DNA of 64,000 nt from a virus. Taxonomy: Duplodnaviria; Caudoviricetes. The notes beneath the pieces were generated by a model, which saw nothing but the letters and a program-made list of their open reading frames with translations, was not told the origin of the DNA and made no database searches. Positions 1-18,860 of the stretch are shown here, one piece after another. The translations under genes were made by a program, and so were the position numbers. The DNA lies in the IMG/VR virus record IMGVR_UViG_3300005719_000002, positions 11,485-75,484 of that record, one strand, 5' to 3'. The stretch's first letter is position 1, and each line of letters opens with the position of its first letter.

Positions 1-1
1 A

Positions 2-1768
2 GGGTCATCTGCGTTTCTTTCTCAAGCCGACCTCTCAGGCTACGTTACCAGCCATGGAGGATCGTCATCCGACACGATAGATATCGTTTCATGGTCAGGC
101 GGTGCGAACCAGTACAGTGTTTCTGATTACGGTTTGTTTGGTTCAACCGTCTTCGGGCAGTCGAATCCTATTCTGGGATTCGTTGATAATGCTTACAAAG
201 ACATTCCAATCAACCTCGTTACAGCGGCAGGTTACATTCAACTCAATGGTGTTACGAAGTTTGGTTGGCGCACGGATGGTGATGTAAACAGTGCGGCTCC
301 CACAACCGACCAAGATTTTTGTATTTTCTCCGCAGCGGAAGTTAGCGGCACCTCCCAAGACCCGAAGCTGGTCATTACCTACACGCTGTCCTCGCCCAGT
401 GCGTCCATTTCCCCTTCAGCGTCTCGTTCACCGTCTGCTTCGGCTTCCGCGTCAATTAGTCCGTCGGCTTCCACCAGTCCATCGGCTTCCGCGTCGCCGT
501 CACTAAGCCCATCGGCCAGTATCTCGCCCTCGGCTTCAGTAAGTGCGAGCACGTCGCCATCGTCTTCCCGCTCGCCCAGCGCCAGTATCAGTGCAAGTAC
601 TTCTCCGAGTCCGAGTATTTCGCCTTCGGCCAGCACCTCCCCGTCGGCGTCCGCTTCGGCATCAACGTCCCCCAGCGCGTCACGCAGCCCCTCGGCTTCG
701 GCTTCACCATCGCTCTCGCCATCAGGCAGCGTATCGCCCAGCGCCTCGGCAAGTGCATCAGTGTCGCCCAGCGCTTCGATCAGTTCATCGGCATCGCTTA
801 GCCCGTCCGCATCGGCAAGTTTGTCGGTAAGCCCAAGCGCGAGTTTATCGCCCAGTGCGTCACTGTCCCCGTCAGCTTCGATTAGTCTATCAACCAGCCC
901 GTCGCTCAGTCCCAGCGCGTCCTTAAGCCCGTCAGCCAGTGTCTCAGCCTCGGTGAGTCCCAGCGCGAGCATGTCGCCGTCTACTTCGTTGTCCCCAAGC
1001 GCTTCATTGTCACCGAGTGCGTCATCGTCTCCGTCGCTGTCGCCGTCGTCCAGCGTGAGTGCCAGTGTTAGTCCGTCAGGCTCACTGTCGCCCTCAGCAA
1101 GTGTGTCACTGTCTCTATCGCCCAGCGGATCGGTCAGTGCCAGTATTTCGCCGTCAGATAGCCAGTCACCTTCAGCTTCAGTTTCGCTGTCCGTTTCACC
1201 AAGCAGTTCGGTTAGCCTCTCGATTTCCGGCTCGGTATCGCCCAGCGCGAGTGTGAGTTCATCGCTAAGCCCCAGCGAGTCGGCGTCCGCCACTGCCAGT
1301 CCCAGTGCATCCAGTTCGCCATCAATGTCACCCTCAGCGAGCCGTTCGCCATCGGCCTCAGCATCGCCTTCCCCCGATCCGGGCGATCAGGGCGTGTCAA
1401 TTTCGAGCTTTAGAATTCCGTACTACCAGCGAGCAGGTGAGAAAGCCTACGTGGACATTTACTTCACCAAACCATTCAGAGACGTGGACAGCAACTATAT
1501 TCCGGGCGGTGGCGGAGCCAAGCGTTCTCCGTTCTACAAGCGACTAACGTGCGCAGTAAATAAGTTCACCCATATTATCACTGTGCCTCAGTTCAACATT
1601 CCCTGCACTACTACCGGATCGGACACGGCTGTCAGGGCAGTGTTTATTTTGAGAGATTCAACCTTCAGTTTTGTGCGATACTTAAACCACTCTAAAGGCG
1701 CGTATTGGGTCGTGCCTGATACGGTGACCAGCTGGCAAGGGCTGATGCAATACAATGACACCCACTAA
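2..1768 (+). CDS. Virion fibre/decoration protein, 5'-truncated; DNRLRE-like domain, 329-aa Ser-Pro-Ala repeat, folded C-terminal domain
   Basis: The frame is open from position 2, so the track start at 134 is not the true start. DPKLVITY resembles the end of DNRLRE-type domains. SPSAS repeat at 389-1375. Confidence 0.7.
389..1375 (+). repeat. Low-complexity SPSAS coding repeat
   Basis: Translation is almost only S/P/A/L/V/I/T/R; all six Ser codons are used. Confidence 0.95.
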
Positions 1769-1779
1769 GGAGAAATGAA

Positions 1780-2235
1780 ATGGGTAGAAAGTACGCTGTT
1801 ACAGGGGGTGACACCAATACCGCCAACACGACCATGCTTGGCATCAACGCCAAGTCGTCGTCACCAACGGTACGTGCTCACCTTTACGATTTCGTGTTCA
1901 GTTCCGTGGCGTCCCCGAACGATTACCCGTGGGAGCTTAACCTGCAACGCATTACGGATGCGGGTACGTCTACCGGCGTGACGCCGCAAGCTCTGGACTC
2001 CGCCGATGGCGCGGCTGAGTGTACGGCGGGCAAGGCGCATTCCGCTGAACCTACTTACACAGCCAGTGCCGTCCTGCTCGATCTGGCGATCAACCTGCGC
2101 AGTACGTTTCGCTTTGCGTGTGTGCCGGGATCGGAATTTATCATTCCCGCCACCGCATCGAATGGGCTGGCAGTCAGGTCGATCACAGCAGCAAATGCGT
2201 TTACGATTTTAGCCACGATTCTTTACGAAGAATAA
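1780..2235 (+). CDS. Putative virion structural protein (151 aa)
   Basis: SD AAGGAG upstream; T/A/G-rich beta-type composition; lies among fibre genes. Confidence 0.6.
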   Translation: MGRKYAVTGGDTNTANTTMLGINAKSSSPTVRAHLYDFVFSSVASPNDYPWELNLQRITDAGTSTGVTPQALDSADGAAECTAGKAHSAEPTYTASAVLLDLAINLRSTFRFACVPGSEFIIPATASNGLAVRSITAANAFTILATILYEE

Positions 2236-2252
2236 CTACTTGGAGGTAGGTA

Positions 2253-2525
2253 ATGCCGGAATACAATGGGCTACTACTACCATCCGAGCCTGCCTATGAA
2301 CGCAAACCCGCTGGTGTGATCATCGTTGACGGGCAGGACATAGCTTCTACGGTGCAGTGTTGCCACTGCAACTGCCACTTCATTTCAGTTAAAGGCTCAG
2401 GACAAACGCGCGGGTTCTGCACGTTGTGCATGGCGCGCACTTGCGGCAAGCCGGAGTGTGATGTCTGTACGCCCTTTGAGAAGAAGATTGCCGATTATGA
2501 ACGTGGAAAACGAGTAGGCTTGTAA
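2253..2525 (+). CDS. Cys-rich putative metal-binding protein (9 Cys)
   Basis: SD GGAGGT; CCHCNCH and CxxC-x4-C-x4-CxxC motifs. Confidence 0.65.
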   Translation: MPEYNGLLLPSEPAYERKPAGVIIVDGQDIASTVQCCHCNCHFISVKGSGQTRGFCTLCMARTCGKPECDVCTPFEKKIADYERGKRVGL

Positions 2526-3323
2526 ATGTTTCAACGTATCAGAGCGGGAGTATCGCAAACGGGAGAAGGTTTTGTCGTCCCCAGCCCCGGCTCGCCTTCG
2601 CTTTCACCCTCAGCGAGTCTCAGCCCTTCAGCCAGCGCCAGCGCGTCTCTTTCACCTTCAGCCAGCCGCTCACCTTCAGCCAGTGTGTCACCGTCAGGCG
2701 GGGCGTTGCGCGGCATTGTGTTCAACGGCACAAACCAGAATGCTTACCGCTCGCTCTCCGGCTCGCCGTGGAGTTCGATGGGTGCATTCAAAACCATCTT
2801 TCGGATGCGCAGCCTGACAACTTCAGGTGCGCGCATTTTCCAACTGGGACAGGAGAGTGCTGGTGACGGATTCAAGCTCTCTGAGAATAGCGGACGGTTG
2901 GACTTTGTGGAGACGCGCGAGTCTGCCCAGATTTTCCATACCCCCACCGACCTGACCAACATGGTCGTTAAGGTGCAGTTCGATCCGGCGAACACCCGGT
3001 GGACATACGAATCATGGAAATCGGATGGAACAGGTTACGTTTCCGGCACGGTGGCGATGACCGACGCGAGTAACTACAACATTGACAGCTTCTCGTGCGG
3101 CGCGAGCGTCTTTAACGCATTCAACGGGGACGCGCACTTTGACTGGGTGGGTATTCAGTCGGGTGTTGATGCGTTAGGGTCGGGCAATTTCCCCGGTGCT
3201 GAACCCCCGGCAGGCACCTATCTCGCCCTGTGGAAGTTTGACGCTGACGACGGCACCGACTCGTCAGGAAACAGTTTGACGCTTACGTTGCATAATTCAC
3301 CAACATTTGAGAACACACCATAA
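2526..3323 (+). CDS. LamG/concanavalin-like virion protein with short SPSAS linker
   Basis: Repeat at 2580-2696, then GIVFNGTNQ...ALWKFD...DSSGNSLTLTL, typical of LamG-like domains. Confidence 0.6.
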   Translation: MFQRIRAGVSQTGEGFVVPSPGSPSLSPSASLSPSASASASLSPSASRSPSASVSPSGGALRGIVFNGTNQNAYRSLSGSPWSSMGAFKTIFRMRSLTTSGARIFQLGQESAGDGFKLSENSGRLDFVETRESAQIFHTPTDLTNMVVKVQFDPANTRWTYESWKSDGTGYVSGTVAMTDASNYNIDSFSCGASVFNAFNGDAHFDWVGIQSGVDALGSGNFPGAEPPAGTYLALWKFDADDGTDSSGNSLTLTLHNSPTFENTP

Positions 3324-3326
3324 ATC

Positions 3327-5351
3327 ATGCCATCCCCAAACCCACCAACAAATCTGGTCTGCACCAACGGCGGCGCAAACGATATTGTTTTGGCATGGAC
3401 GGATAACTCGTCCGATGAAACAGGGTTCAGGATTGAGCGCAAGCTGGGTGTCAGTGGATCGTATTCGGAAATCGACACGGTAGGTGCAAACGTTACCGGC
3501 TACGTTGACACGTCTTCCAAGACAGCCAACCGTCCGTATATCTACCGCGTGCGCGCTTATAACGGTTCCGGCAATTCGGCCTACTCAAATGAAGACGACG
3601 CCACCACGCCCTATGCGGGTACGGTTCCCAACTACAAGACCGACACCGCGAACTACGTAGACGTTGAGAAGACCATCACCGATGCAACGAACGCGACCCC
3701 GATTGTCATCACCACCAGCACGACGCACGGCCTCTCCACAGGCGATCTGATTCGCATATCAAAGGTTCTGGGTAACGATGCGGCCAATGGGCTGTGGCGC
3801 GTTACGGTGCTGAGCACCACCACGTTTAGTCTCGACAACAGTGTCGGCACTGGCGCGTTCAGTTCCAGTCCGGCAGCGCGGGTATTTGCCAACTTCCCTG
3901 TGCCTCTACCGTTGGCTGGCGGGAAGTTCTACGACGAAATGTTCGGTACACAGGTAATGCGGTTTACGGACGAGTCGGACGGGGATTATTTCGGCACGGC
4001 TTACTCAGTATGGCCGACATTCAACTGCGACAACACGCGGGTCTATTTGCAATCAGGGGGTGGTTGGGCATTAGGTGAATTCAACCCAACGACCTTCCGC
4101 CGCTCTGGAGCGCTTCACTCAATCCCGAATGCACCGTTTACCAACTATGCCCACTACGAGTCAGCCTTCTGGAGTTTTACCGATCCCAATAAATTGTTCA
4201 TTCTGGTTGATGCCAAAATCTACTACTACAGCCCCTTAACCGACACCTACACGCTCGTCAAGGACTTGCAGAGCTACTTCGGAGCGGGGTGGTTTTTCAA
4301 TCAGCTTTATGTGAGCAGCAATGACAATCGTTTTGGGTTCAACACATGGAACGGGTCAGGTAATCAGGGCTTTGCGGTGTATGAACTGTCCACCGACACT
4401 CTGAAACTCGACGTGCGCAACACCGATGTCAACGGCATCACGATGGACAAGTCCGGCCAGTATGTGTTGTTTGTTACCGACTCTCTTGGTTATTACACCC
4501 AGTACATCTACTCCGTGGACGCTGGAACCTTTGAGACTCTTATCTCAGACGTGAACACCGGACTGCCGGATTTTGGCATAGGGCACAACGATGCCGGTCA
4601 GAGCGTGATTGTGGGAGCGGATCAATGGAATGGTGGGTTTAGTTTCCGTAACATGGGTACGCCACACACGGTGAGCCACCCATTCACCTACGCCCCCTAC
4701 TGGTTTAATTTTCACCTCTCAATGCGTGCTGATAACGATGAGTGGGTGCTGGTCGGCACCTACGGCGATACTGGCGTGTCCGCCGCACCGCCGAAGTATT
4801 ATCAGGAGCTTTTCCAGACAAACAACACAAACGGTTCCCTCAGGCGGCTGGTTCACGGTAATTCCAACTATCAAGCCAACGTGTTCCTTTGTCCCACCTG
4901 TCCGGTAACTGTGACGGGTGCGACCAACGCAACGCCTATAGTTATTGCTACCTCCGGCCCGCATCGGATGCTGACAGGGATGCGCCCGCAGATTTCCGGC
5001 ATTGGCGGGAACACAGCAGCGAATGGCACGTGGACAGCGACGGTCATTGATGCGACACACTTTAGTTTAGACGGCAGCACTGGCAACGGGGCTTACACAT
5101 CCGGTGGGCAGGTTTACGCGGAGATGTACTGGGACACGCCGCGTGCGAACATGAGCCGTGATGGTAAGTTTATCGCGTGGACTTCCAACTGGAACGGAGT
5201 TCCCGGTGGTGGGCGCAGGGACTTGTTCATCGCGCAGGTTGATCCGGTCAACCCGTCCGCGTCCCCTAGCCCATCGGCGTCGCTTAGTCCTTCAGCGTCC
5301 GCGTCACCGTCGGCAGGCAGTAGTTTGAAGTTGATTGCTTTGTGTGGCTAG
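3327..5351 (+). CDS. Tail fibre / receptor-binding protein: FN3, two FCCH-like beta modules, beta-propeller, SPSAS tail
   Basis: FN3 signature (PNPPTNL...LAWTDNSSDETGFRIER...YIYRVRAYN); two ITxATNATPIVI modules; SRDGKFIAWTSNW blade. Confidence 0.75.
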   Translation: MPSPNPPTNLVCTNGGANDIVLAWTDNSSDETGFRIERKLGVSGSYSEIDTVGANVTGYVDTSSKTANRPYIYRVRAYNGSGNSAYSNEDDATTPYAGTVPNYKTDTANYVDVEKTITDATNATPIVITTSTTHGLSTGDLIRISKVLGNDAANGLWRVTVLSTTTFSLDNSVGTGAFSSSPAARVFANFPVPLPLAGGKFYDEMFGTQVMRFTDESDGDYFGTAYSVWPTFNCDNTRVYLQSGGGWALGEFNPTTFRRSGALHSIPNAPFTNYAHYESAFWSFTDPNKLFILVDAKIYYYSPLTDTYTLVKDLQSYFGAGWFFNQLYVSSNDNRFGFNTWNGSGNQGFAVYELSTDTLKLDVRNTDVNGITMDKSGQYVLFVTDSLGYYTQYIYSVDAGTFETLISDVNTGLPDFGIGHNDAGQSVIVGADQWNGGFSFRNMGTPHTVSHPFTYAPYWFNFHLSMRADNDEWVLVGTYGDTGVSAAPPKYYQELFQTNNTNGSLRRLVHGNSNYQANVFLCPTCPVTVTGATNATPIVIATSGPHRMLTGMRPQISGIGGNTAANGTWTATVIDATHFSLDGSTGNGAYTSGGQVYAEMYWDTPRANMSRDGKFIAWTSNWNGVPGGGRRDLFIAQVDPVNPSASPSPSASLSPSASASPSAGSSLKLIALCG

Positions 5352-5353
5352 AA

Positions 5354-5596
5354 ATGCAACGCAAACCGCATGGAAGGTCGATAACGCTTATCGCAACCCT
5401 AACACCACCGAAGGTTGCCAGTCTAACCTTTACGCTGACCCGTCCAGATCGCAGCAAGTCGTCTCAGATGGCATCCACGGACGGGGCGGGGAAGGCCAGT
5501 GTGAGTTTTCAGTTGCGTCCTAAAGACCCGACGGCCACATATCAATGCAGCGTGGCAGGGGCAGGAGCAAGCGATTCGACTTCGATAATTTGCTGA
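5354..5596 (+). CDS. Small Ig-like structural protein
   Basis: ATG 3 nt after the upstream stop; STDGAGKASVSF...ATYQCSV Ig-like pattern. Confidence 0.55.
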   Translation: MQRKPHGRSITLIATLTPPKVASLTFTLTRPDRSKSSQMASTDGAGKASVSFQLRPKDPTATYQCSVAGAGASDSTSIIC

Positions 5597-5625
5597 CGCC
5601 GTAGCGTACTGAGATAGAGATGGTT

Positions 5626-5662
5626 AGCCGAGCCGGGACATACGAACTCGGCTCGGTTTTTT
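5626..5662 (+). terminator. Intrinsic terminator
   Basis: AGCCGAGCCGGG / CTCGGCTCGGTT stem (11-12 bp) followed by TTTTTT. Confidence 0.8.
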
Positions 5663-5668
5663 CATAAA

Positions 5669-8299
5669 TTGGCAACTAAACTTTACTTAGAATCGACCGC
5701 GTTCTCGCCCATCACGCCGACGCCTAACGCCGGTTGGACGGACACGACGCAGTTTGCCCGCTTCGCGGCTGGCACAACCAAGCTGAGTTCCACGATGACG
5801 ACGCGCAGTTGCACGTCAGCCATCTCCACTCAGGCCGACATTATTCTCTGCCAGTTTATTTCACACCCGCTGGATGCAGGCCAGACGATTACCGGCGGGC
5901 AAAACATTTCGATTGTAATGCGCGAGGCGGAGACTGCCGCCACTAACAACCTCTTTTTCACTTGGGCAGTCTACATTTTCAACGGCTCAACACTTCAGAA
6001 AACCCTCATTGCCAAGCGTCAGGATGGCACTGAGCAGACCTCCGCTACCTTAACCACCCGCAGCGCCACGGTTGCGAGTGTGGCGGGTAACTACACCACC
6101 GTTGCGGGGGATCGAATTGTTATTGAGGTTGGATTGAACGGCGACCCCGGCGGCACGAGCAACCACAATGGATCGGTTAGTCACGGATCGGATTCAGGTT
6201 CGGATTTGGCTATTTCAGATGGCGTTACGACCGCTAATAATCCCAACCTGAACCTCACCGACACGCTGACGTTTAATACGATTTCCCCTTCAGCTTCGCT
6301 CAGTCCAAGTGCATCGCTGAGTCCAAGTGCATCCTTGTCCCCCTCGGCAAGTCTCAGCCCCAGCGCCAGTGTTTCACCCTCACTCAGTCCATCAGCGAGT
6401 TTAAGCCCCTCTGCCAGTTCGTCACCTTCTCTGAGTCCATCAGCCAGCCTGTCACCGTCTGCGAGTCGTAGTCCCAGTGCCAGTATCTCGGCATCGGTCA
6501 GCCCCTCTGCGAGCTTGTCCCCATCCGCCAGCCTCAGCCCTTCGGCAAGCAGTTCGGCGTCGTTAAGTCCGTCAGCAAGTATCAGTCCAAGTTCCAGCGC
6601 AAGTCCCAGCGTGTCGGCAACGCCACCGATATTTATCGAAGGGCAGAATGTCGATCCATTCTTCATTGAACACTTTCTGTTCTATGAGACACAGCCCTTG
6701 CTGGGAATTCCGGGGTTGTCGCCAAGTGCTTCAGTCAGTCCATCAGCAAGTATTTCGGCTTCAATTAGTCCCAGCGCCAGTCTCAGCCCCTCGGCGTCTT
6801 TGAGTCCGAGCGCGAGTGTGTCAGCTTCAGTCTCCCCCAGTGCGAGCATTAGCCCATCAGCTTCAGCCTCACCAAGTCTCTCACCATCCGCGTCGCTGAG
6901 TCCTTCTGCGAGTGAGTCGCCTTCGATTTCTCCGTCCGCGTCTTTAAGCCCCAGCGCTTCCGTGTCGGCCAGCGTGTCGCCCAGTCCGTCGCTGTCGCCT
7001 TCAGCGTCGCTCTCGCCCTCTGCCAGTGTCTCCGCGTCGTTATCGCCTTCGGCGAGTCTAAGTCCGAGTGCTTCACAATCTGCGAGCCTATCCCCTAGCG
7101 CGTCATTGTCACCTTCGGCGTCCCTTTCACCGTCCGCGAGTGCATCAGCCTCAGTGTCCCCGTCGGCGAGTCTCAGTCCCAGCAGCAGCGCATCGCCGTC
7201 TTTGTCGCCATCTGCGTCTCTGTCACCAAGCGCATCGCCGTCACCATCGGCCAGTGTTAGCGCGAGCGTATCTCCCAGTGCTTCGTCCAGCGCCAGTTCG
7301 TCGCCGTCACTTTCTCCGAGTGCCAGCGCGTCACCATCGTCCAGCGCCAGTCCTAGTTCCGGTCTGACTCCGGCCATCTTCGTCTACGGCCAAAACGTCG
7401 ATCCGTTTTTCATTCAGCACTTCATTCCGCTGATTGTTAATTCGCTGTTCGTTGCTGAGCAGCCATCGCCATCCGCTTCGCTTAGCCCCAGTGCCAGTCA
7501 GTCACCCAGCGCCAGCGCCAGTCCCAGCCCTCCGGCTGCGCCGCCTGTGTTCGTCTATGGTCAGAATGTTGATCCGTTCTTCATCCAGAAGTTCATCCCG
7601 CTGATTGTCAACTCTCTATTCGCGATTGAAATCACGGCATTCTCACCGAGCGGTAGCCAGAGTCCATCCGCTTCCGCGTCAGCATCGCTGTCTCCGTCGC
7701 GGTCGTTGAGTCCCAGTGCATCGCTTAGTGCCAGCCTGTCTCCCAGTGCGAGTTTGTCACCTTCAGCCTCGCTCAGCCCAAGTGCCAGCGCTTCGCCGTC
7801 TCGTTCGCCGTCAGCTTCTCTAAGTCCCAGTGCAAGTGTCTCCGCATCGCGCTCACCCAGTGCCTCACGGAGCGCATCTCTTAGCCCTTCAGCATCCATC
7901 AGCCCATCAGCCAGCGGGTCGGTCAGTCCTTCCCCATCGGTCAGCCCGTCAGCATCAATCAGCGCTTCGGCGTCAATCTCGCCATCGCCAAGTGCCAGTG
8001 CGTCTCGTTCCCCTTCGGCATCTTTAAGCCCCTCTGCCTCCATTAGTCCCTCACTCAGCCCCAGTGCTTCTGCTTCAGCGTCTGCCAGCCCTTCGGGGTC
8101 ACTGTCGGCGTCGCTCTCACCAAGTACATCCATCTCTCCGTCCGCGTCAGCCAGCCGCAGTATCTCGCCAACCTTGCCGCCGCCATTGTGCGTGACCTTT
8201 GAATTCACGCTCACAACAAGCCAAGTGGTGTTCTCAGGAAAGACTTCTACAACAGAGTTCGATCTACACACTTCTGAAATTGACTTTGACCAATTGTAA
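5669..8299 (+). CDS. Virion protein: folded N-domain, ~630-aa SPSAS region interrupted by three GQNVDPFF motifs, short C-domain
   Basis: TTG start giving MATKLYL; repeat region 6284-8170. Confidence 0.75.
6284..8170 (+). repeat. Low-complexity SPSAS coding repeat
   Basis: Translation; synonymous codons are scrambled. Confidence 0.95.
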
Positions 8300-9249
8300 T
8301 GGCCGTATCCCCCTCAGCCAGTATCAGCCGCAGCCCCAGCCCGTCGGCATCGCGGTCGCCGTCAGCTTCACGCAGCCCTTCAGCCAGTAGATCGCCGTCT
8401 GCATCTGTTTCGGCGTCTCGCAGTCCGTCAGCCAGCCGTTCACCCAGTGCTTCAGTATCAGCAAGCATTTCGCCGTCGGGGAGCGCCAGCGGGTCACTCT
8501 CTCCGTCAGGGTCGGCCAGCACGAGCACTTCACCTTCAGCATCTATTAGCGCATCACAAAGCCCTTCGGGTTCAATATCAGCGTCGCTATCTCCATCCGG
8601 CTCGGTGAGCACGAGCGCGTCACCCTCGGCCTCGGTGAGTGCGTCACCCAGCCCGTCAAGCTCAGTATCCGCGTCACCATCCAGTTCAGCGAGCGCAAGT
8701 ATCAGCGCTTCGTTATCACCAAGCACGTCCAGTAGCGGGAGCGCATCACCATCAGCCTCGGTGTCCCTATCAGCCAGTGCTTCGTCATCTCAAAGCCTAT
8801 CTCCCAGCGCAAGCGCATCGGAAAGTCCGAGTCCCTCGGCTTCTGTAAGCCCATCGAGTAGCATGTCTCGCTCGCTCAGCCCTTCCAGTTCCGTCTCAGA
8901 GTCACCCAGCGCCAGTGAAAGCCCATCCGTATCCGCCAGCCCGTCAGCAGCACCAGTTTCCCCGTCGGTGTCGGTCTCACCTTCCGCCAGTGTTTCCGTT
9001 TCTCCATCTCCAAGTCCGTCGCCCTCTGAAAGCGGCAGCGTCAGTCCAAGTAACAGCCTTAGTAACTCACCGTCCCCGTCAAACGGGCCGTGGTCGCCTT
9101 CTTCGTCAATCAGTCCATCCAGTTCAAACAGTCCCAGCGTAAGCCCAAGCAGTTCAGTCAGTCCTTCACACGTACATCAGGATTCAGGTTCGTCCTCTAT
9201 AAGCCCGTCAAGTTCATGCAGCCCTTCGCCTAGTTCTTCTCCTGGGTGA
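8299..9249 (+). CDS. Stand-alone Ser/Pro-rich mucin-like disordered protein (316 aa)
   Basis: TAATG stop/start overlap with the upstream gene; the whole protein is low complexity. Confidence 0.7.
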
Positions 9250-9256
9250 AACTCTC

Positions 9257-9293
9257 TTGACAGCATCTACGCAGCAAGCGTATATATTGCTAC
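9257..9293 (+). promoter_or_regulatory. Sigma70-like promoter with overlapping inverted repeat
   Basis: TTGACA(9257-9262)-18 nt-TATATA(9281-9286); GCAGCAA / TTGCTAC inverted repeat (9271-9293). Confidence 0.65.
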
Positions 9294-9296
9294 TCA

Positions 9297-9440
9297 GTGA
9301 GTAAAAAACCCGTCACCATTCAAACCTTTAGATGCCAATGCGAACGCTGCGGGTATCGGTGGGTGGCAAAGGTCAGAGAACCCAAGCGTTGCCCTAACTG
9401 TCATAATCCCAACTGGAACAGGCGGAAGAAGACGAGATGA
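9297..9440 (+). CDS. Zn-ribbon mini-protein (47 aa), absent from the ORF track
   Basis: GTG start; MSKKPVTIQTFRCQCERCGYRWVAKVREPKRCPNCHNPNWNRRKKTR; ATGA overlap with the next gene. Confidence 0.75.
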   Translation: MSKKPVTIQTFRCQCERCGYRWVAKVREPKRCPNCHNPNWNRRKKTR

Positions 9441-10408
9441 TCAAAGGTCGTGTATCAGTACTCATCCCCAGCCGCAAGGAACGCTGGCTGAACCAGACCC
9501 TAGCCGATGTGTTCGGTAAAGCGGCTGGTGATGTCGAAGCGGTCGTGTGCCACGACGGAATTTGGCCGGACGAGTTACCGCCTGAAAACGCAAAGCTCAT
9601 CCAGTTTCATCCCGGCAGAAACGTCGGCATGAGAGCGGGAATCAACATGGCTGCGCGCATTGCTCAGGGTGAATACCTAATGAAACTTGACGGTCACTGT
9701 CAGTTGGGCGAAGGGTATGATGCGATTCTCAAGGCCGATTGTGCGCCGAATTGGGTGATGATTCCACGGCGGTATTCCATTGAGGTCGGCACACCTGAAG
9801 AACCGAAATGGGAACTGCGAACCGATAAGGTGGTTGATTATCACTACCTTTCCTACCCGTTTCTCCGCAAGAACGATATCGCCTGTGGGCTGCATGGGAA
9901 CATCTGGCATGAACGGCGCAAGAAGCGTCAGGATATTTTAGTGGATCGTGAAATGTCATCACAGGGGTCGTGCTACTTCGGCCACCGAGACTTCATGGAG
10001 AAGGCCATCTTTCCGCTGGATGACGAATCTTTCGGCACGTTTGCGAGCGAGATGCAGGAAGTTGGTTATCGGGCTTGTTCTAACGGCGGGCAGTTGATGG
10101 TCAATAAGAACACCTATTACGGCCATGTTCATAAGGGCAAAGCGTGGGGTACGGGGTATAAGTTCAACACGAAAGAATGGGAGAACTGGCAACGGCAGAA
10201 TAAGAAGGGTCACGACCACGCAATCATTCAGCTTCTCTCGAATCGACCGCTGGCCGAGAAGTTAATCAACGAGTTCTGGCCTGTACCCGAATGGCCGGAG
10301 AAAAACGGTGGGTGCAACTGGGGTAAAGTCTATGCAGACTTTGCCGAATGGAAAGCAGAAACCTACGGCAAGGAACCGCCGATGAGTTGGTTGGAAAAGG
10401 GGGCATGA
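9437..10408 (+). CDS. GT-A glycosyltransferase (GT2 clan), ppGalNAc-T-like
   Basis: SVLIPSRKE, GMRAGINMAARIAQGEYLMKLDGHC (DxH), GSCYF, GGQLMVNKNTYYGH. Confidence 0.85.
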   Translation: MIKGRVSVLIPSRKERWLNQTLADVFGKAAGDVEAVVCHDGIWPDELPPENAKLIQFHPGRNVGMRAGINMAARIAQGEYLMKLDGHCQLGEGYDAILKADCAPNWVMIPRRYSIEVGTPEEPKWELRTDKVVDYHYLSYPFLRKNDIACGLHGNIWHERRKKRQDILVDREMSSQGSCYFGHRDFMEKAIFPLDDESFGTFASEMQEVGYRACSNGGQLMVNKNTYYGHVHKGKAWGTGYKFNTKEWENWQRQNKKGHDHAIIQLLSNRPLAEKLINEFWPVPEWPEKNGGCNWGKVYADFAEWKAETYGKEPPMSWLEKGA

Positions 10409-10503
10409 TGATTATCTTCTGGATTTCCCTTGTAGTGGTGGCAATGGCAGTACTTATTTGGCTAGGCAGCAAAACAGCAAAGGAGCAAAATCGATGGCGT
10501 TAG
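10405..10503 (+). CDS. Small membrane peptide (32 aa)
   Basis: ATGA overlap; hydrophobic MMIIFWISLVVVAMAVLIWLG. Confidence 0.5.
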   Translation: MMIIFWISLVVVAMAVLIWLGSKTAKEQNRWR

Positions 10504-10766
10504 ACGAAGTAATCGACACAGAAGCAGTGGTGAAAAGTTTCTCACCGCGTCCGACAAAGCCGGTGACAATGGACTTTCCTGACGCGATGCGGGAGGTGAT
10601 CGCGGGGAAGAAGATCGCTAAGTTGGAGTGGGCGGAGAAGGGCGAGCCGGAGTGCTATGCATTGCTCAACGCCGGAATGCTGCAAATCTTTCGTGGGGCA
10701 AGTTTCCATGCGTGGAATGTCTCTGATGGGGATTTAGCGGGTGAGGATTACATTGTGGTCAAATGA
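10494..10766 (+). CDS. tad2: DUF2829 / Thoeris anti-defence Tad2-like protein
   Basis: MDFPDAMREVIAGKKIAKLEW...HAWNVSDGDLAGEDYIVV matches the DUF2829 pattern; SD AAGGAG supports the start at 10494. Confidence 0.7.
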   Translation: MALDEVIDTEAVVKSFSPRPTKPVTMDFPDAMREVIAGKKIAKLEWAEKGEPECYALLNAGMLQIFRGASFHAWNVSDGDLAGEDYIVVK

Positions 10767-11404
10767 ACCGCACCCTCCAATTCATCGCTGACAAGTTCGG
10801 CGTAGACCTGAACGCTCGGTGCCCTATCGCGCTGCCAATCAGCCGTCATGGGCTAGCCAAGTTGTTTGCTGACTTAGGATTCAAGCACATCGTGGAGATT
10901 GGTGTCGAGAAAGGACTGTACACAAAAGCCCTTGCCAAATTCAACCCGCAAGCAACCATCTACGCTATCGACGCTTGGCACCCGATCAAAGGCTATCGTG
11001 ACCACGTAAACCGAGACAAGCTCCAGAGGTTTTACGAGATCAGCAAGGAACGTCTCGCACCGTTTCCGAACGTGAAAATCATCCGGCAGCTTTCACTGGA
11101 TGCGGTGAGGGATTTTAACGACAAGTCACTGGATGCTGTTTATATCGATGCCGATCACTGTTTTCAGTCAGTTACAAATGACATCTGTGAGTGGGGTAAA
11201 AAAGTTAAAGCAGGTGGCATTGTTGCAGGTCACGACTTTGCCCACTTAAACAAAGGTAATGCCCTGATGCACGTTAAGTATGTCGTTGAGGGCTATACGC
11301 GCTGTTACGACATTTACCCGTGGTTTCTGACCAATACCGACGAGGAAGAACCGGAAGCGGACAGTCTTAAGACTAATCGAAGTTTCTTGTGGGTTAAGCA
11401 GTGA
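10763..11404 (+). CDS. Class I SAM-dependent methyltransferase (Methyltransf_24-like)
   Basis: IVEIGVEKG, AIDAW, LDAVYIDADH, GGIVAGHDF. Confidence 0.85.
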   Translation: MNRTLQFIADKFGVDLNARCPIALPISRHGLAKLFADLGFKHIVEIGVEKGLYTKALAKFNPQATIYAIDAWHPIKGYRDHVNRDKLQRFYEISKERLAPFPNVKIIRQLSLDAVRDFNDKSLDAVYIDADHCFQSVTNDICEWGKKVKAGGIVAGHDFAHLNKGNALMHVKYVVEGYTRCYDIYPWFLTNTDEEEPEADSLKTNRSFLWVKQ

Positions 11405-12036
11405 TTGTTGGAGTTCTTTACGTTACCTCGAACCGAGAGCGCCCTGAATTCGAGGAGAAGATAAAGGCCAGCCTGTTGACCGTTATTGGAGATCGACCCT
11501 TGGTGAGCGTATCACAACAACCGATAAATTTTGGTCGGAACATCTGCGTGGGTGACATTGGACACTCCTACTACAGCGCCTTCCGGCAAATGGTTGTTGG
11601 CGCAGAATCCATGACGGAGGACTATGTAGCCATTGCCGAGTCCGACCAGCTCTACCCACCCGACTATTTCACTTTTGAGCCAGCCGGAGAAGACCTGTAC
11701 CTGCATGACAGTGTGTATGTAATCAAATCCTTCAAACCCGACCAGTATCAGCAAAAGCGCTGGGGTGACTGGATTTCCGTGGTGAAGCGAGAGTATCTGA
11801 TTGCCTGCGCCAAAAGCTACCTTAGCAAAAAGAAGACGCGCGTGTCACTGTTTGGGCTTCATGGGTTGAAAGACGTGAAGCATTGGAAACACGGATTACC
11901 CGTGGTGAGCTTCAAGACGCGGCAGAATGTCAGTCTTAACACCGAGACATTAGTGGACACGGGCGAGGTAGAAGCGGTCGCAGAACTGCCTTACTGGGGT
12001 AAGGCTCGCGATCTGTTTAGGAAGTACGTGAAATGA
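11401..12036 (+). CDS. GT-A-like glycosyltransferase domain, paralog 1
   Basis: VSVSQQP...GRNICVG...DYVAIAESDQLYPPDYF; shared with 14125 and the C-half of 15104. Confidence 0.65.
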   Translation: MIVGVLYVTSNRERPEFEEKIKASLLTVIGDRPLVSVSQQPINFGRNICVGDIGHSYYSAFRQMVVGAESMTEDYVAIAESDQLYPPDYFTFEPAGEDLYLHDSVYVIKSFKPDQYQQKRWGDWISVVKREYLIACAKSYLSKKKTRVSLFGLHGLKDVKHWKHGLPVVSFKTRQNVSLNTETLVDTGEVEAVAELPYWGKARDLFRKYVK

Positions 12037-12707
12037 AGGTGTGCGTAATCAGCGCCTCGCTTGGTAACTACGATGTCGAACATCCGTGGGCAGAGCAAAT
12101 TGTTCCTGATGGCGTCGAAGTAGAAATCCACCGGCTCAACGATTCTAATTTCCCGCCACGCCATAAAGCCATGACGCCTGCGTTACAGTGCGGGATACCG
12201 AAATGGCACGGTTACGAAATGTTTCCTGGTTTCGACTGGTATCTCTGGATAGACGCGAGTTGCGCGCTCACCAGAGGCAACGAAGTGCATCTGTGGCTGT
12301 GTGAAGCCGATGCGTTCAACTTGGCAGGTTACTACGACATCGCACTGTTCAAACACCCTGAGCGGAAGACTATTCAGCAAGAGTATGAATTTATCAAGGA
12401 AAAGATGGCGACGGGCAACAAGTATCTCTGTTCGCGATATGAAGGTGAATGGCTAGACGAGCAATACGAGTACGTGGCTGATATCGCTTATTATCCAGCG
12501 TTCTATGCGTCTACTGCTTTCATCTACAACCCAACGCCGCTAATTCGCAACGCGTTCAAAGAGGTTGCGTGGCAAAAATACCGCTTCATGCTGCACGATC
12601 AACTTGCCCTTGCTTATGCACTTCGAGAACACGGGCATAGTATCAAGGTAATCAATCAGGATTATCAAAAGTCGGGGTTGATGGAGTTTGTGAGGAGTAA
12701 GAAGTAA
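12033..12707 (+). CDS. DUF616/MUCI70-TOD1-like glycosyltransferase
   Basis: SASLGNYD, YLWIDAS, FKHPERKTIQQE, DQLAL motifs. Confidence 0.65.
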   Translation: MKVCVISASLGNYDVEHPWAEQIVPDGVEVEIHRLNDSNFPPRHKAMTPALQCGIPKWHGYEMFPGFDWYLWIDASCALTRGNEVHLWLCEADAFNLAGYYDIALFKHPERKTIQQEYEFIKEKMATGNKYLCSRYEGEWLDEQYEYVADIAYYPAFYASTAFIYNPTPLIRNAFKEVAWQKYRFMLHDQLALAYALREHGHSIKVINQDYQKSGLMEFVRSKK

Positions 12708-12710
12708 CTC

Positions 12711-13913
12711 ATGCCCAATACCATCATCTTAGGAGCGGGCTTCAGTGGCCTTGCTACCGCGATCACGTCAGGTGGGACGGTCTATGAGGCAACGGATTCA
12801 CCGGGCGGTCTGGGTGCGTCCTACGAAATCAACGGTTTCCGCTTTGAGCGCGGCGGGGGGCACTGGTTGTTCGGCGGCGACCCGATGGTAACGGCGTTTA
12901 TCCAAGGACTCTGCGACATTAAGCGGTACGAGCGCAAGTCGTCCATTTATTTTCCCGATGAGGACAAGTTCTACCCCTACCCAATTCAGTCCACCCCTGA
13001 GTTCGCGAGCGTCATCAGTCAGGAGACAGGCGGTGAGTACGGTCAACCCATCGTGACCATAAAAGACGACTTGCGGCATCGGTTCGGCACGACCATGTGT
13101 GAGAAGTTTTTCTTTCCATTCAACGACCTCTATACCGCAGGACTCTACGACAAGGTTGCTCCGCAGGACGCTTACAAAAGTCCGCCGATTGGCAACAAGG
13201 GCTACAACGAGACGTTTATCTATCCGGTGCAGGGGTTGGGGCATTTGGCACGTCGCATGGCCGCACGGTGTGAGGTGAGGTTCAACAAGCGAGCAAAGTG
13301 GATTGATACCAGAGAGAAGATGGTTCATTTCGAGGATGATACCTGTCAAGGGTATGGCAAGTTAGTTTCCACGTTGCCGCTGAACCGCATGATGGTGATG
13401 ACAGGATTGCAACCAGACAATGACGCCAGCGATCCTGCTGTATCGGTTGCTGTGTATAACATCGCTGCTAAAAGAGGTAAAAACTGTCCTAGTGACCAAT
13501 GGGTTTACACGCCGAATAGTGATGCGGGTTTTCATCGAGTCGGGTTCTATAGCAACGTGGATAAGATACTTGCTCCGTTTGGCAAGCAAGACACCCATGT
13601 AAGTATGTACGTTGAATCTGCGCACAAATACGATCCGCACGCCAGCAATGGCTTAGTAAGTGAGTGGTCAAATGAAAGCGCCGTAATTTGGACGCTTCAG
13701 GAGTGGGGCTGGATAGAAGATACCGAGGTAGTAGATCGTACTGACGTAGAAATCGCCTACACCTACTGCCGACCGGAAAGCACATGGCGAGAGGATGCGA
13801 TTGCGTTGCTCAAGCAGCACGACATCACCTGTGTTGGGCGATTTGCCGAGTGGCGGTTTTGCGGAATCGTTGAGTCTATGCGGAGAGGGTTTGAAGCGGG
13901 GGTAAATTTATGA
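12711..13913 (+). CDS. FAD-dependent oxidoreductase, UDP-galactopyranose mutase/HemY-like
   Basis: IILGAGFSGL Rossmann motif, E...PGG, GGGHW, RVGFYSN, GRFAEW. Confidence 0.7.
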   Translation: MPNTIILGAGFSGLATAITSGGTVYEATDSPGGLGASYEINGFRFERGGGHWLFGGDPMVTAFIQGLCDIKRYERKSSIYFPDEDKFYPYPIQSTPEFASVISQETGGEYGQPIVTIKDDLRHRFGTTMCEKFFFPFNDLYTAGLYDKVAPQDAYKSPPIGNKGYNETFIYPVQGLGHLARRMAARCEVRFNKRAKWIDTREKMVHFEDDTCQGYGKLVSTLPLNRMMVMTGLQPDNDASDPAVSVAVYNIAAKRGKNCPSDQWVYTPNSDAGFHRVGFYSNVDKILAPFGKQDTHVSMYVESAHKYDPHASNGLVSEWSNESAVIWTLQEWGWIEDTEVVDRTDVEIAYTYCRPESTWREDAIALLKQHDITCVGRFAEWRFCGIVESMRRGFEAGVNL

Positions 13914-14134
13914 TTCCTATAATAGTACACATCAACGCTGGGCATGAATTTTGCGATGACGAAGAAAGGCGATGTCACTTTTACAAGTCTAGCGACATAT
14001 CGATGGCTTCTCAGTGTGATGCCCATTGCAAATTGTTCGCTGTGGACTTGCGAGAGGTGTTCAATGAGAGGGGTCAAATCCTGCACGCCAAACGCCACGA
14101 TTTGTGTGTCATCGCTGAAAAGTTATGTCCCTAG
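13910..14134 (+). CDS. Small hypothetical protein
   Basis: ATGA overlap with the upstream gene and overlap with the downstream start. Confidence 0.5.
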   Translation: MIPIIVHINAGHEFCDDEERRCHFYKSSDISMASQCDAHCKLFAVDLREVFNERGQILHAKRHDLCVIAEKLCP

Positions 14135-14820
14135 CTATCCTATTCTACAGTGCTAACCAAAAGCCCGAACCTTTCGCCTCCAAGGTGCGCGCATCTCTAC
14201 TCGACACAATAGGCGACCTGCCGCTCGTCTCCGTCACGCAAGGCGAATTAGACTTCGGCCAAAACATCAACGTCGGACAAATCGGTGCGTCCACCTACAA
14301 CTGCTACAAGCAAATTCTTATTGGGGCGCAAGCGGCCACCACGCGGTTCATCGCCTGTGCCGAGGACGACGTTCTCAGCCCTGTCGAACATTACCAGTTT
14401 CGCCCTCCCCGCGACGACACTTTCTACTACGATAAAAACCGCTGGTGGGTGGAGCTAAACGACCGGAAGCCTCGTTACCGCTGGCGCAACCGCACGGTAA
14501 TGTCCACCTGTGTCTGCAACCGTGAATTGTTCATCGAATGGGCAGAGAGGCTGTTTAAGAAGTTCCCCAAGGAACCGACTAGGGAGGGGATGACGGGCTG
14601 GGCGGAGCCGGGAAGGTACGAAACCTACCTCAAACTTCCGCAGGTAAAGATTAGCTTTTTCAGCAGTCAATACCCAATGCTGACGTTTAACACCAAGCCG
14701 TCTCTGGGTGGTGTTAGAAGGCCGCAGTCAACTGACACGACCTGTAACTACTTAGAACCTTGGGGATTCGCCAGTGACGTTTGGGAGAAATATATAGCCA
14801 GTGGGGCTGAAAGCGGCTAG
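14125..14820 (+). CDS. GT-A-like glycosyltransferase domain, paralog 2
   Basis: LVSVTQG...GQNINVG...FIACAEDDVLSPVEHYQFRPPRDD. Confidence 0.65.
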   Translation: MSLAILFYSANQKPEPFASKVRASLLDTIGDLPLVSVTQGELDFGQNINVGQIGASTYNCYKQILIGAQAATTRFIACAEDDVLSPVEHYQFRPPRDDTFYYDKNRWWVELNDRKPRYRWRNRTVMSTCVCNRELFIEWAERLFKKFPKEPTREGMTGWAEPGRYETYLKLPQVKISFFSSQYPMLTFNTKPSLGGVRRPQSTDTTCNYLEPWGFASDVWEKYIASGAESG

Positions 14821-14863
14821 AATGTCCTGACAACTGAATAGGCCACATCCCCAGAGGATCAAC

Positions 14864-14909
14864 CACCGTTTAGTTTCGAGTTATCGCAACTTGAAATTGG
14901 CGGTGTTTT
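14864..14909 (+). terminator. Long hairpin with U-tract, terminator-like
   Basis: CACCG/CGGTG outer stem, TTTCGAGTT/AACTTGAAA inner stem, then TTTT. Confidence 0.5.
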
Positions 14910-14925
14910 CATTTAGGAGGGGCTT

Positions 14926-15093
14926 ATGTTCATAACGCAATGTGTAGGCCGTCGCAAGCTGGAATGGCGGTTACAAGCCGACGGGAGTTACAGGGTAGAC
15001 ATTAAGCTGAAGGATACCCGATTAGCCACTCTGATCATCGACAAGGCCGAAGCGAGCAAACTGCGCGCTCGAATGGTGAAGCATTCGAAGTAG
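14926..15093 (+). CDS. Small basic protein (55 aa), absent from the ORF track
   Basis: SD AGGAGG; MFITQCVGRRKLEWRLQADG...KHSK. Confidence 0.55.
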   Translation: MFITQCVGRRKLEWRLQADGSYRVDIKLKDTRLATLIIDKAEASKLRARMVKHSK

Positions 15094-15103
15094 GAGGTAA
15101 CTT

Positions 15104-16810
15104 ATTCCTTACGACCTCTCGGTTTTGATCCCCGCTCGTAACGAGGAATTCCTCGCCCGTACCGTTGAAGGCGTTCTTGCTGCGCGGGAAGCAAAAACCC
15201 AAGTTTGCGTGATCGCGGACGGCGCTTGGCCTGACCCTCCGCTCCCTGTTCATCCTGACGTAACAATCATTCATCACTCGAAGTCTATTGGGCAACGGGC
15301 AGCTTGCAATGAAGGTGCGCGGCTGTCTGAAGCCAAGTACATAATGAAGCTGGATGCGCACTGCATCATGGATCAGGGATTTGACCGGAAGCTGATTGAG
15401 GACGCCCAGCCCGACTGGACGGTCATTCCCAGCCAGTACAACCTCTACGCCTTCGACCGTCTCTGCAAAGACTGTGGACACGAAGCCTACCAAGGCCCAA
15501 CGGTATGCGAGAAGTGCGGCTCGAAGAACGTGGAGAAAGTGATCGTGTGGCAACCGCGCGATGGGCGGGTAATTAACGGCAAGAACATGGGCAAGCGGCT
15601 TACCGAAGCGTGGGCGTTTGATCGCGAGTTGCACTTTCAGTATCACGGGGAAATAGCCGCAAGACAGCAAGGCGATCTAATTGAAACCATGTCGTTACTG
15701 GGAGCCTGCTGGTTTCTGGAACGAGAACGGTATTGGGAGTTGGGCGGCAGCGACGAGGAGCATGGCTCATGGGGACAGCAAGGCACGGAGATAGCCTGCA
15801 AGTCATGGCTGTCGGGTGGGAAGGTAATCGTTAACCGCAAGACATGGTTTGCCCATATGTTCCGCACTCAAGGCGGCGACTTCGGGTTTCCATACCCGAA
15901 CACTTCGGTTCACAAAGCGCGGGAACACTCCAAGTGGCTGTGGAAGGGCAACAACTGGCCGCTGGCTAAGTATCCCCTATCGTGGCTGGTGGAGAGGTTC
16001 ATGCCGCTGGGGTCGTGGTGGAGCCAGGAAGACCTTGACCAGCTTAAAGCGGTAGAGAAGGGTAAAGCGGTAGAGAAGGGCAAAGCGGTGGATGTCCGGC
16101 CTCCAACCAAGGGAATCGTCTACTACTCCCATAACCAGCTTGATCCGGTCGTCGCCCAGACCGCCAGAGACGTGCTCAAGCGCGCGGTTAACGGGCACAA
16201 GATTGTTTCAGTTACACTGGAGCCGGTAGACCTTGGGCTGAATGTCGTTCTCCGCGATAAGCAGAAGGGTTATCTAACCTATCTTGAGCAGATTCTCAAG
16301 GGACTACAGACATCGACAGCGGACTCCTGCTGGCTGGTTGAGCATGATTGCCTCTACCCACCTGAGCATTTTGCTTTCACCCCGCCACGAGATGATCGCT
16401 ATTACTACAACACCAATGTCGTGAAGGTGCGCTGTTCGGATGGTCACGTGCTGAAGTATTCCGGCTGCTTGCAGGTGTCGGGGATGTGTGCCAGCCGCCA
16501 ACTGCTCATCCAGCACTACGAGAAGCGCATTGCGCGGTTTCACGCAGACGGTGACAAGTATGATCGTCATATCGGGTACGAGCCGGGAATGCGCCCACCG
16601 CCACGAGGGATTGACGATTACGGATATGAGACGTGGACTTCCACAAAGCCGATTGTTGATTTGCGTGTCGAGGGAACAATGTCGAAGTCGAGGTGGACGA
16701 TTGACGAGTTTCGCAACAAGCCGAAAGAATGGTGGGAGGGTGATTATGTTGAGGGGTGGGGGCCGACCAAAGGCCGCGTATCGGAATTCCTTCAGGACTT
16801 GAGAGCATGA
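15104..16810 (+). CDS. Two-domain glycosyltransferase: ppGalNAc-T-like GT2 domain (Zn-ribbon insertion) plus GT-A-like paralog 3
   Basis: DLSVLIPARNE, KLDAHC, WELGGSDEEHGSWGQQGTE, GGKVIVNRKTWFAHMFR. Proposed start is the ATT 6 nt after GGAGG; the track start at 15125 truncates strand beta1. Confidence 0.85.
   Translation: MPYDLSVLIPARNEEFLARTVEGVLAAREAKTQVCVIADGAWPDPPLPVHPDVTIIHHSKSIGQRAACNEGARLSEAKYIMKLDAHCIMDQGFDRKLIEDAQPDWTVIPSQYNLYAFDRLCKDCGHEAYQGPTVCEKCGSKNVEKVIVWQPRDGRVINGKNMGKRLTEAWAFDRELHFQYHGEIAARQQGDLIETMSLLGACWFLERERYWELGGSDEEHGSWGQQGTEIACKSWLSGGKVIVNRKTWFAHMFRTQGGDFGFPYPNTSVHKAREHSKWLWKGNNWPLAKYPLSWLVERFMPLGSWWSQEDLDQLKAVEKGKAVEKGKAVDVRPPTKGIVYYSHNQLDPVVAQTARDVLKRAVNGHKIVSVTLEPVDLGLNVVLRDKQKGYLTYLEQILKGLQTSTADSCWLVEHDCLYPPEHFAFTPPRDDRYYYNTNVVKVRCSDGHVLKYSGCLQVSGMCASRQLLIQHYEKRIARFHADGDKYDRHIGYEPGMRPPPRGIDDYGYETWTSTKPIVDLRVEGTMSKSRWTIDEFRNKPKEWWEGDYVEGWGPTKGRVSEFLQDLRA
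16046..16089 (+). repeat. 18-nt tandem repeat (KAVEKG x2.4) at the GT domain junction
   Basis: AAAGCGGTAGAGAAGGG repeated. Confidence 0.9.
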
Positions 16811-17175
16811 ACGTCAACGAAAAAGCTGGTTGCACGATCAACGTGGTAATCAAGGATGAGAACAAGCAAGTGGTCATCCCTGATGCCTTTAACTACGCAT
16901 TGGCAGACAAGGACTCAGGAATAGTGCTCACTTCAGGTTCCAAGTCCCCGGCCAGTTCGGTAAATATCGCCATCACCCCCAATCAGAACCGTATTCTCGA
17001 TCAGGGCAAGCCAAGTGAAACCAGAGTCCTGACAGTGGTAGCGCCGTACGATGGAACCAACCAGGCAACCGGCGAGTACCAGTACAAAGTTGTTAATCTC
17101 AAAGGGGTAGATGCGAATACGTCCACTTCGCCGTCGGCTTCGGTGTCTCCTTCGGCAAGTCCGTCGGCTGGGTAG
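16807..17175 (+). CDS. Small beta-rich structural protein with C-terminal SPSAS tail
   Basis: ATGA overlap at 16807; ends [17 protein letters not shown]. Confidence 0.65.
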   Translation: MNVNEKAGCTINVVIKDENKQVVIPDAFNYALADKDSGIVLTSGSKSPASSVNIAITPNQNRILDQGKPSETRVLTVVAPYDGTNQATGEYQYKVVNLKGVDANTSTSPSASVSPSASPSAG

Positions 17176-17215
17176 CAATGCAATTACATCCTCAGACTGA
17201 AGGCGGACGATAACT

Positions 17216-18680: not shown

Positions 18681-18860
18681 CCGAACCTTCGCAAACACAG
18701 AACCCGACTGTAACACTGTGCAGGAGTATTAAACTGCAAAATGTGATTCATGGCGACCGCTAACGTACTTCATGAACGAAACTGGGCAGCAACGGAGAAC
18801 GGGAGAAGTACAGCAACTCCGTTGCAATCCCAGTTGCAACACGGAACATGGAGAGCGTTC

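Follow-up and report, generated by a model that had tools for sequence, protein, structure and literature searches.

Mucin-type O-glycosylation is started on Ser and Thr residues of unfolded tracts by glycosyltransferases (GTs) of family GT27, the polypeptide N-acetylgalactosaminyltransferases (GalNAc-transferases, ppGalNAc-Ts). To our knowledge, GT27-type mucin glycosylation has been treated as a eukaryotic trait, and glycosylation of phage particles has been shown for some mycobacteriophages only. Here we describe a locus at one end of a 64,000-nucleotide stretch of DNA (the window), positions 11,485-75,484 of the 75,484-bp IMG/VR record IMGVR_UViG_3300005719_000002, which derives from an uncultivated phage. 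Between window positions 2 and 17,175 lie six genes (g1, g4 to g7 and g15) specifying proteins with tracts of the hexapeptide SPSASx, and between g7 and g15 a cassette of eight genes, among them two for GTs with likeness to GT27. We consider it likely that this is a phage-encoded, cytoplasmic system of protein O-glycosylation, in which the SPSASx tracts would serve as portable acceptor tags for a glycan that we infer. Literature searches found no published description of an SPSAS/GT27-like phage system.

Several described systems resemble the locus in part. The serine-rich repeat glycoproteins found in Gram-positive bacteria (GspB, Fap1, SraP) contain long (Ser-X)n arrays. A dedicated multi-GT cassette glycosylates these arrays while the proteins are in the cytoplasm, and the arrays serve as stalks which keep a binding domain at a distance from the surface. 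The phage tracts likewise alternate Ser with a small or aliphatic residue. Unlike the GtfA/GtfB systems, with their GT-B (GT4) pair and accessory Sec apparatus, the phage cassette lacks PF00534-type and Sec-type domains (none by Pfam among the ten proteins of 9437-18007), and the carriers are phage proteins. In mycobacteriophages, Freeman et al. (2023; Cell Host Microbe 31:1216) are said to have found GTs encoded close to the structural genes, and virion proteins whose terminal extensions bear O-linked glycans, the acceptors reportedly being short C-terminal extensions of capsid and tail-tube subunits. Similarly, our cassette lies between a fibre block and g15, and there are C-terminal tags on g5, g15 and a 187-aa protein; the differences are the long hexapeptide arrays on many fibre-type carriers and that the present system is known from sequence alone. 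Mycobacteriophage virion glycosylation, cited in PMC12582341, is the nearest precedent. Giant viruses and chloroviruses possess their own cytoplasmic machinery for glycosylating virion surface proteins, with methylated and unusual sugars (PMC9614988), but these are eukaryotic viruses employing other GT families and no hexapeptide tag.

GT27-like enzymes and Ser-Pro-Ala tracts

The GT27 likeness is clearest in the large two-domain GT encoded by the last gene of the cassette, for which we aligned 26 homologues and obtained an AlphaFold 2 model with a mean predicted local distance difference test (pLDDT) score of 89. The N-terminal domain of the model superimposes on mouse GalNAc-T1 (8v9q; Z 24.6, root-mean-square deviation 2.4 over 255 aa); Toxoplasma GalNAc-T3 (8uhv) follows at Z 22.3, and the next family at Z 17.3. 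When the model was submitted to Foldseek, the ~50 top chains among the matches listed were all ppGalNAc-Ts. Residues D77-A-H79 (the DxH metal motif) and H244 are invariant in the 26 homologues. As for the Gal/GalNAc-T motif (WGGEN type), the segment HGSWGQQGTE aligns to IWGGEQYE of GalNAc-T10, a diverged form in which W216, G217, G220 and E222 are invariant. The sole solved relative of the second enzyme, the 323-aa GT encoded by the first cassette gene, below E 0.1 is a Toxoplasma polypeptide GalNAc-transferase, and its KLDGHC and GHVH segments were aligned to a ppGalNAc-T by phmmer. For both GTs phmmer retrieved ppGalNAc-Ts (E 6.6e-5 and 2.9e-3), with alignment of WGG-E-like and G/A-H-x-F-R segments; identity to these enzymes is just 16-22%. 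By structure and sequence comparison, the two are specifically GT27-like.

The phage enzymes share with the animal and apicomplexan ppGalNAc-Ts the GT-A domain, the DxH motif and the later His ligand, and have a diverged, WGG-E-like segment. There are also differences. A four-Cys zinc ribbon is inserted in the N-terminal catalytic domain of the large GT. Neither Pfam nor structure matching revealed a ricin-type lectin domain in this protein, its place being taken by a domain with a sugar-nucleotide fold (residues 325-558; nucleotide-diphospho-sugar transferase fold, nearest IspD/GlmU at Z ~12.5). Lastly, whereas ppGalNAc-Ts are type II membrane proteins of the secretory pathway, the phage enzymes are cytoplasmic without a membrane anchor: the maximum 19-residue hydropathy is 0.74 and 1.03 for the two GTs, neither has a transmembrane segment, and none of the eight cassette proteins has a transmembrane segment or signal peptide.

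The start of the large GT deserves comment. No ATG, GTG or TTG codon precedes its conserved first strand (YDLSVLIPARNE), and the mechanical start is the TTG at 15125. Since the conserved DLSV lies upstream of that codon, and AGGAGG at 15092-15097 stands 6 nt before an ATT at 15104, the sequence makes the rare ATT start at 15104, which would keep the conserved first strand, the likely one. An 18-nt tandem repeat of 2.5 copies (16045-16089; KAVEKG) was noted in the linker between the two domains, where it coincides with a low-confidence stretch of the model (315-324).

The presumed acceptors are, as in mucins, long tandem repeats of Ser, Pro and Ala. Counting windows of ≥75% Ser+Pro+Ala, the tracts of the six plus-strand genes amount to 1,286 aa with 108 exact SPSAS units, close to the ~1,250 residues originally estimated for six co-directional genes, and a seventh carrier was found outside the window. 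Over the whole genome SPS[AGS]S occurs 145 times in the three plus frames versus twice in the minus frames. Their position varies: g1 and g6 have tracts inside the protein, g4 has one at the N-terminus, g5 and g15 have one at the C-terminus, and g7 consists of little else. The amino acid repeat is hardly visible in the DNA. Tandem Repeats Finder detected almost no tandem repeats; each of the 108 SPSAS units has a different 15-nt coding sequence; the six Ser, four Pro and four Ala codons are all evenly used; and the longest exact DNA repeat in 1-9300 measures 16 nt, where random codon choice gives 16-21. Because every unit is coded differently in DNA that is not repetitive, the repeat must be kept by selection on the protein rather than stem from recent duplication. 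Minus-strand open reading frames (ORFs) over the tracts (379-1293 and 6181-8726) were dismissed as frame shadows of the repeat.

Single-sequence AlphaFold 2 models scored the tracts at a pLDDT of ~35 and showed no secondary structure in them, in keeping with an extended acceptor region. This argues against a regular fold of SPSAS[VLI] such as a left-handed beta-helix, a possibility we had considered. Among ppGalNAc-Ts, Pro is favoured at positions -1, +1 and +3 relative to the acceptor; each of the three Ser residues of an SPSASx unit presumably has a Pro at one of these favoured positions.

Joint distribution of enzymes and tracts

The family of the large GT is widespread, with >4,000 homologues at ~50% identity, on at least 459 IMG/VR contigs and on 119 contigs in metagenome-assembled genomes (MAGs), many of these labelled Patescibacteria. 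We sampled 81 viral or metagenome loci (80 from IMG/VR and one Logan contig) and 80 MAG loci. SPSxS motifs on the strand of the GT gene were present in 68 of the former, with up to 204 per locus, and in 52 of the latter. Where both 10-kb flanks were complete, SPSAS occurred on the GT strand in 39/41 loci versus 1/41 for the opposite strand. The co-occurring loci span G+C contents of 0.32-0.68. When 143 complete tagged ORFs were grouped by their non-repeat parts they fell into 69 clusters, none of which contained a cassette enzyme. Among the MAG contigs with both the GT family and SPSAS tracts (L203-L282), binned as Patescibacteria, some are of 240-455 kb; these loci are either prophages or cellular copies.

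The association was also approached from the repeat side, through a degenerate DNA pattern for four consecutive SPSASx units. Eighty loci were read among the IMG/VR matches listed; ~50 were true SPSASx arrays, and the rest TPTATP-type linkers or non-coding repeats. The large GT is encoded in 26 of 44 searchable true-array records, and in 10 of the 11 that are ≥90% complete. It is absent from all 30 control records matched by the DNA pattern without SPSASx arrays, ~18 of which encode Thr/Pro linkers, the others being non-coding or out-of-frame matches. The TPTATP-type Pro/Thr linkers of phage and bacterial proteins are, like the SPSASx tracts, low-complexity extended spacers of six-residue period, but in these records the GT27-like enzyme does not accompany them. 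Co-occurrence, which the original prediction had proposed as a check, therefore holds in both directions. As a specificity control we used an equally widespread phage family of GT2-TPR-GT1 proteins, for which SPSAS was found in 3/77 loci (2/31 of those fully flanked); one of these three also holds a GT27-like gene.

Three related contigs were reached through homologues of the probable capsid protein. Both cassette and tags are present in the two closer relatives (capsid 67% and 69% identical). In one of them the positional orthologue of our 187-aa carrier still has an SPSAS tail, of 115 aa; the second has its cassette at another site within the structural block, and a small ORF has an ITYGP... 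end. The third, a 70.4-kb soil contig (capsid 58%), shares 11 structural proteins, collinear with those of our phage and 30-60% identical. In the 95% of the contig inspected there was no cassette gene (tblastn E≤1e-3; hmmsearch E≤1) and no SPSAS tract. Its orthologue of the 187-aa carrier has the YGPDGQATY junction too, but where the tail would follow it has an ordinary domain of 105 aa. Judged from these sequences, tag and enzymes come and go together on the same scaffold; within the structural lineage we saw neither repeats without GTs nor the reverse. One capsid homologue labelled Pyrinomonadaceae (Acidobacteriota) provides a lead to the host of the lineage.

The genome is mosaic (window 54991-56952 and 49999-54978). 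Its terminase is 60-71% identical to that of five IMG/VR phages of 51-75 kb, four of them (71-75 kb) rated complete and one (51.6 kb) at 72%, while in the true structural relatives (capsid 58-69%) the terminase is just 23-26% identical. The terminase relatives (four complete genomes) have neither GT nor SPSAS, but as they share with this phage only the terminase and the internal virion protein they constitute a weak control.

In the strongest competing explanation, which we nevertheless regard as unlikely, the tracts act unmodified as spacers or fibre shafts, being either flexible linkers comparable to the Pro/Thr linkers of bacteria or a regular extended repeat. The cassette would synthesize or change a different glycoconjugate, for example a glycan of the host envelope or a protein on the host surface, so that superinfection is blocked or release is assisted. 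Joint travel would then reflect a single exchangeable late-gene module: the cassette adjoins the fibre genes and could move as a block, and the syntenic relative departs in its entire fibre block and not just in the tags. Phages without these GTs do possess TPTATP-type linkers, a phage described below has tracts without the GT27-like enzyme, and V, L or I fills the sixth position in about 68% of units. Against it stands a tag found on 69 unrelated carrier families, variously placed relative to the cassette, and gained or lost together with it on one orthologous protein; the exact peptide, too, is kept from 32% to 68% G+C. The nearest relatives of both GTs in structure and sequence modify peptides, far ahead of polysaccharide synthases. 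None of the enzymes is membrane-bound, and no step calls for a membrane or a lipid carrier. This explanation is weakened by the peptide-type fold of the GTs and their solubility, by the variety of carriers, and by the way tag and enzymes are gained or lost together on one orthologue.

An improbable variant holds that host enzymes or other members of the cassette glycosylate the tracts, the GT27-like pair acting on a different phage or host protein. It takes its strength from phage G031 (IMGVR_UViG_3300017963_000104), an unrelated, complete 44.5-kb phage which has, within 15157-39244, 108 SPSxS motifs in two proteins (63 and 45) and a different GT cluster directly upstream of these genes. That cluster comprises four GT2-type domains, a methyltransferase-like ORF, an epimerase-like ORF and a GT2-TPR-GT1 protein which, among solved proteins, best matches GmaR, the O-GlcNAc transferase of flagellin (E 6.1e-5). 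We entertained, and rejected, a second independent pairing of GT and SPSAS on this basis, for the GmaR-like family is linked to SPSAS in just the 3/77 loci mentioned, as against 39/41 for the GT27-like family; it serves instead as the specificity control, and G031 stays an exception. Glycosylation of phage DNA bases as an anti-restriction measure, with the repeats unrelated, is very improbable: it is common among phages, and the cassette holds a methyltransferase and a Tad2-like protein of anti-defence type, but genes for base modification, such as one for a hydroxymethylase, are absent from it, the matching folds are those of peptide GalNAc-transferases and not of known DNA glucosyltransferases, and the co-occurrence with SPSAS would be left unaccounted for.

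Carriers, cassette genes and genome setting

The features of the locus are collected in Table 1.

Table 1. Tract-bearing carriers and cassette genes of the locus (window coordinates unless stated; tract lengths in aa)
Feature	Position	Strand	Tract	Remarks
Carrier g1	2..1768	+	330	5' end cut by window edge; full gene 800 aa, start 635 nt upstream
Two small repeat-free genes (151 and 90 aa)	1780..2525	+		Within fibre block; no family match at cut-off
Carrier g4	2526..3323	+	43	N-terminal SPSAS tract, then 205-aa domain
Carrier g5	3327..5351	+	30	Fibronectin type III, FCCH-like, probable beta-propeller, C-terminal SPSAS tag
Carrier g6, 876 aa	5669..8299	+	553	203-aa N-terminal domain, four SPSAS tracts
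g7, 316 aa	8299..9249	+	312	Almost wholly Ser-X repeat; start overlaps g6 stop (TAATG)
GT-A glycosyltransferase, 323 aa	9437..10408	+		GT2 PF00535, E 2.9e-6; D-G-H motif
Tad2-like (DUF2829) small protein	10458..10766	+		E 3.2e-4, below Pfam cut-off
S-adenosylmethionine methyltransferase, Methyltransf_24	10763..11404	+		E 1.1e-14
211-aa paralogue of large-GT C-terminal domain	11401..12036	+		ESD motif at DxD position
TOD1/MUCI70-like putative glycosyltransferase	12033..12707	+		E 0.031, below Pfam cut-off
FAD-type flavoprotein	12711..13913	+		Resembles eukaryote-type UDP-galactopyranose mutase; NAD_binding_8 E 6.3e-6
231-aa paralogue of large-GT C-terminal domain	14125..14820	+		EDD motif
Large two-domain GT	15104..16810	+		GT2 E 2.2e-11 on mechanical ORF 15125-16810
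g15, 122 aa	16807..17175	+	18	Small beta-rich domain, C-terminal SPSAS tag
Seventh carrier, 187 aa	genome 1690-2253, outside window			95-aa domain and 90-aa tail

In g1 the tract separates an N-terminal domain from a 125-aa C-terminal one. The FCCH-like domain of g5 also matches a phage tail-protein PHROG. Between the four tracts of g6 are three copies of a ~30-aa hydrophobic island with a QNVDPFFI motif (window 6632-7672, residues 322-668), each modelled by AlphaFold 2 as a weak strand-helix (pLDDT 50-62); these are possibly assembly or attachment elements. The start of g15 overlaps the stop of the large GT (ATGA), the translational coupling of last repeat gene and last GT that had been claimed. 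Members of the g15 family directly follow the large GT in 7/9 related loci, and 5/8 aligned members, g15 itself included, are tagged. The 187-aa carrier sits two genes past those of the capsid region.

The original prediction had counted six GT-type domains in five genes. This is firm for two and weak for one; the remaining three show a GT-A-like fold only. The latter are the C-terminal domain of the large GT and its 211-aa and 231-aa paralogues, which have an E/D-x-D motif and whose nearest solved structures are cytidylyl- and uridylyltransferases. The predicted methyltransferase and flavoprotein were both borne out. Among the 161 related loci the Methyltransf_24 gene is found in 116, and probably its product methylates the sugars; the TOD1/MUCI70-like gene is found in 30. 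The flavoprotein, which begins with an FAD Rossmann region and is confined to this phage and its closest relative, has solved UDP-galactopyranose mutases (UGMs) as best relatives, those of T. cruzi (4dsg; E 5e-11, residues 2-316) and A. fumigatus (E 5.6e-7, residues 159-383); at E≤0.1 Pfam lists only Amino_oxidase and NAD_binding_8, no GLF domain, and its substrate could be another UDP-sugar. The Tad2-like protein recurs inside the cassettes of relatives (L002, L322 and a JGI contig).

The phage record has 70-bp terminal repeats and is rated complete. Positions 2-17,175 form the end of a late, co-directional structural block, with probable portal, capsid and tail genes upstream, partly outside the window; elsewhere the window encodes the terminase, a 1,659-aa internal virion protein with a transglycosylase domain, and ParB-like and Cas4-like proteins. 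Pfam and PHROGs gave no family for the proteins of the capsid/tail region or for most carrier domains, and the large GT and terminase had no match among cultured-phage records. Scans for close relatives with single proteins yielded nothing for the 323-aa GT or the probable capsid protein, and no RNA was found over the window by Rfam and ARAGORN. Just after g15 lie genes for two coiled-coil proteins, one (17216-18010) with a strongly hydrophobic end segment (hydropathy 2.52) and one (18750-19295) with, as judged by eye, a hydrophobic stretch near its N-terminal third; a function in lysis or an association with membranes is possible for both. A 707-aa protein of the tail region (L283:8240-10363 in genome coordinates, outside the window) has an end segment which, from its sequence, looks Hint-like: a Cys after a Gly/Pro linker, ... 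VLSHN, and almost no C-extein.

A putative virion glycosylation pathway and its meaning

We propose the following scheme. The pair of GT27-like GT-A enzymes (9437-10408 and the N-terminal domain of 15104-16810) would act late in infection, placing the first sugar, from a UDP-sugar, on serine hydroxyls of the extended tracts which head-proximal and fibre-type proteins carry. Extension of the glycan would fall to the TOD1-like protein, the C-terminal domain of the large GT and the two paralogues of this domain (211 and 231 aa). In this phage the UGM-like flavoprotein would provide a furanose donor, and the Methyltransf_24 enzyme would O-methylate the sugars. Virion appendages would thereby acquire stalks and tails of "bottle-brush" form, stiffened, hydrated and resistant to proteases, and the tracts are most likely the O-glycosylation tags of these appendages. 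Such structures may, as originally suggested, shield, hydrate or adhere the virion, or mimic host surface glycans.

Mucin-type glycosylation, as originally proposed, is supported by the GT27-like folds, the solubility of the enzymes, the two-way co-occurrence and the contrast within the lineage. A number of points weigh on the other side. We infer the transfer of sugar itself, the identity of the sugars, the place of the carriers in the virion (from gene order and domain types only) and the biological role. Three of the six "GT" domains are, by their predicted folds, as close to nucleotidyltransferases as to GTs, and V, L or I at the sixth position could point to a structural repeat. G031 has tracts but no GT27-like gene at hmmsearch E≤1. 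Many of the co-occurring loci may share ancestry, so that the counts are not of independent events, and the clean within-lineage contrast is small, three genomes versus one.

A wider proposition is that SPSASx is a genuine portable sequon of a viral and prokaryotic branch of mucin-type (GT27-like) glycosylation, used by some ultra-small bacteria and by uncultivated phages in their hundreds, many of which seem to be phages of Patescibacteria, to build densely glycosylated, methylated bottle-brush appendages; this we advance tentatively, as something short of an even chance. Mucin-type initiation would then not be a eukaryotic invention. If the system operates as proposed, a large, globally spread set of phages (no fewer than 459 IMG/VR contigs, with protein homologues in the thousands) would sugar-coat its appendages by way of a simple hexapeptide tag and of enzymes whose closest structural kin are the initiators of animal mucin glycosylation, with a bearing on the adhesion of phages to, and passage through, glycan-rich surfaces and on their resistance to proteases or recognition. 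A short encodable tag and a soluble enzyme set could, moreover, be used to O-glycosylate arbitrary recombinant proteins in the bacterial cytoplasm. The system would likewise bear on how mucin-type glycosylation arose in evolution.

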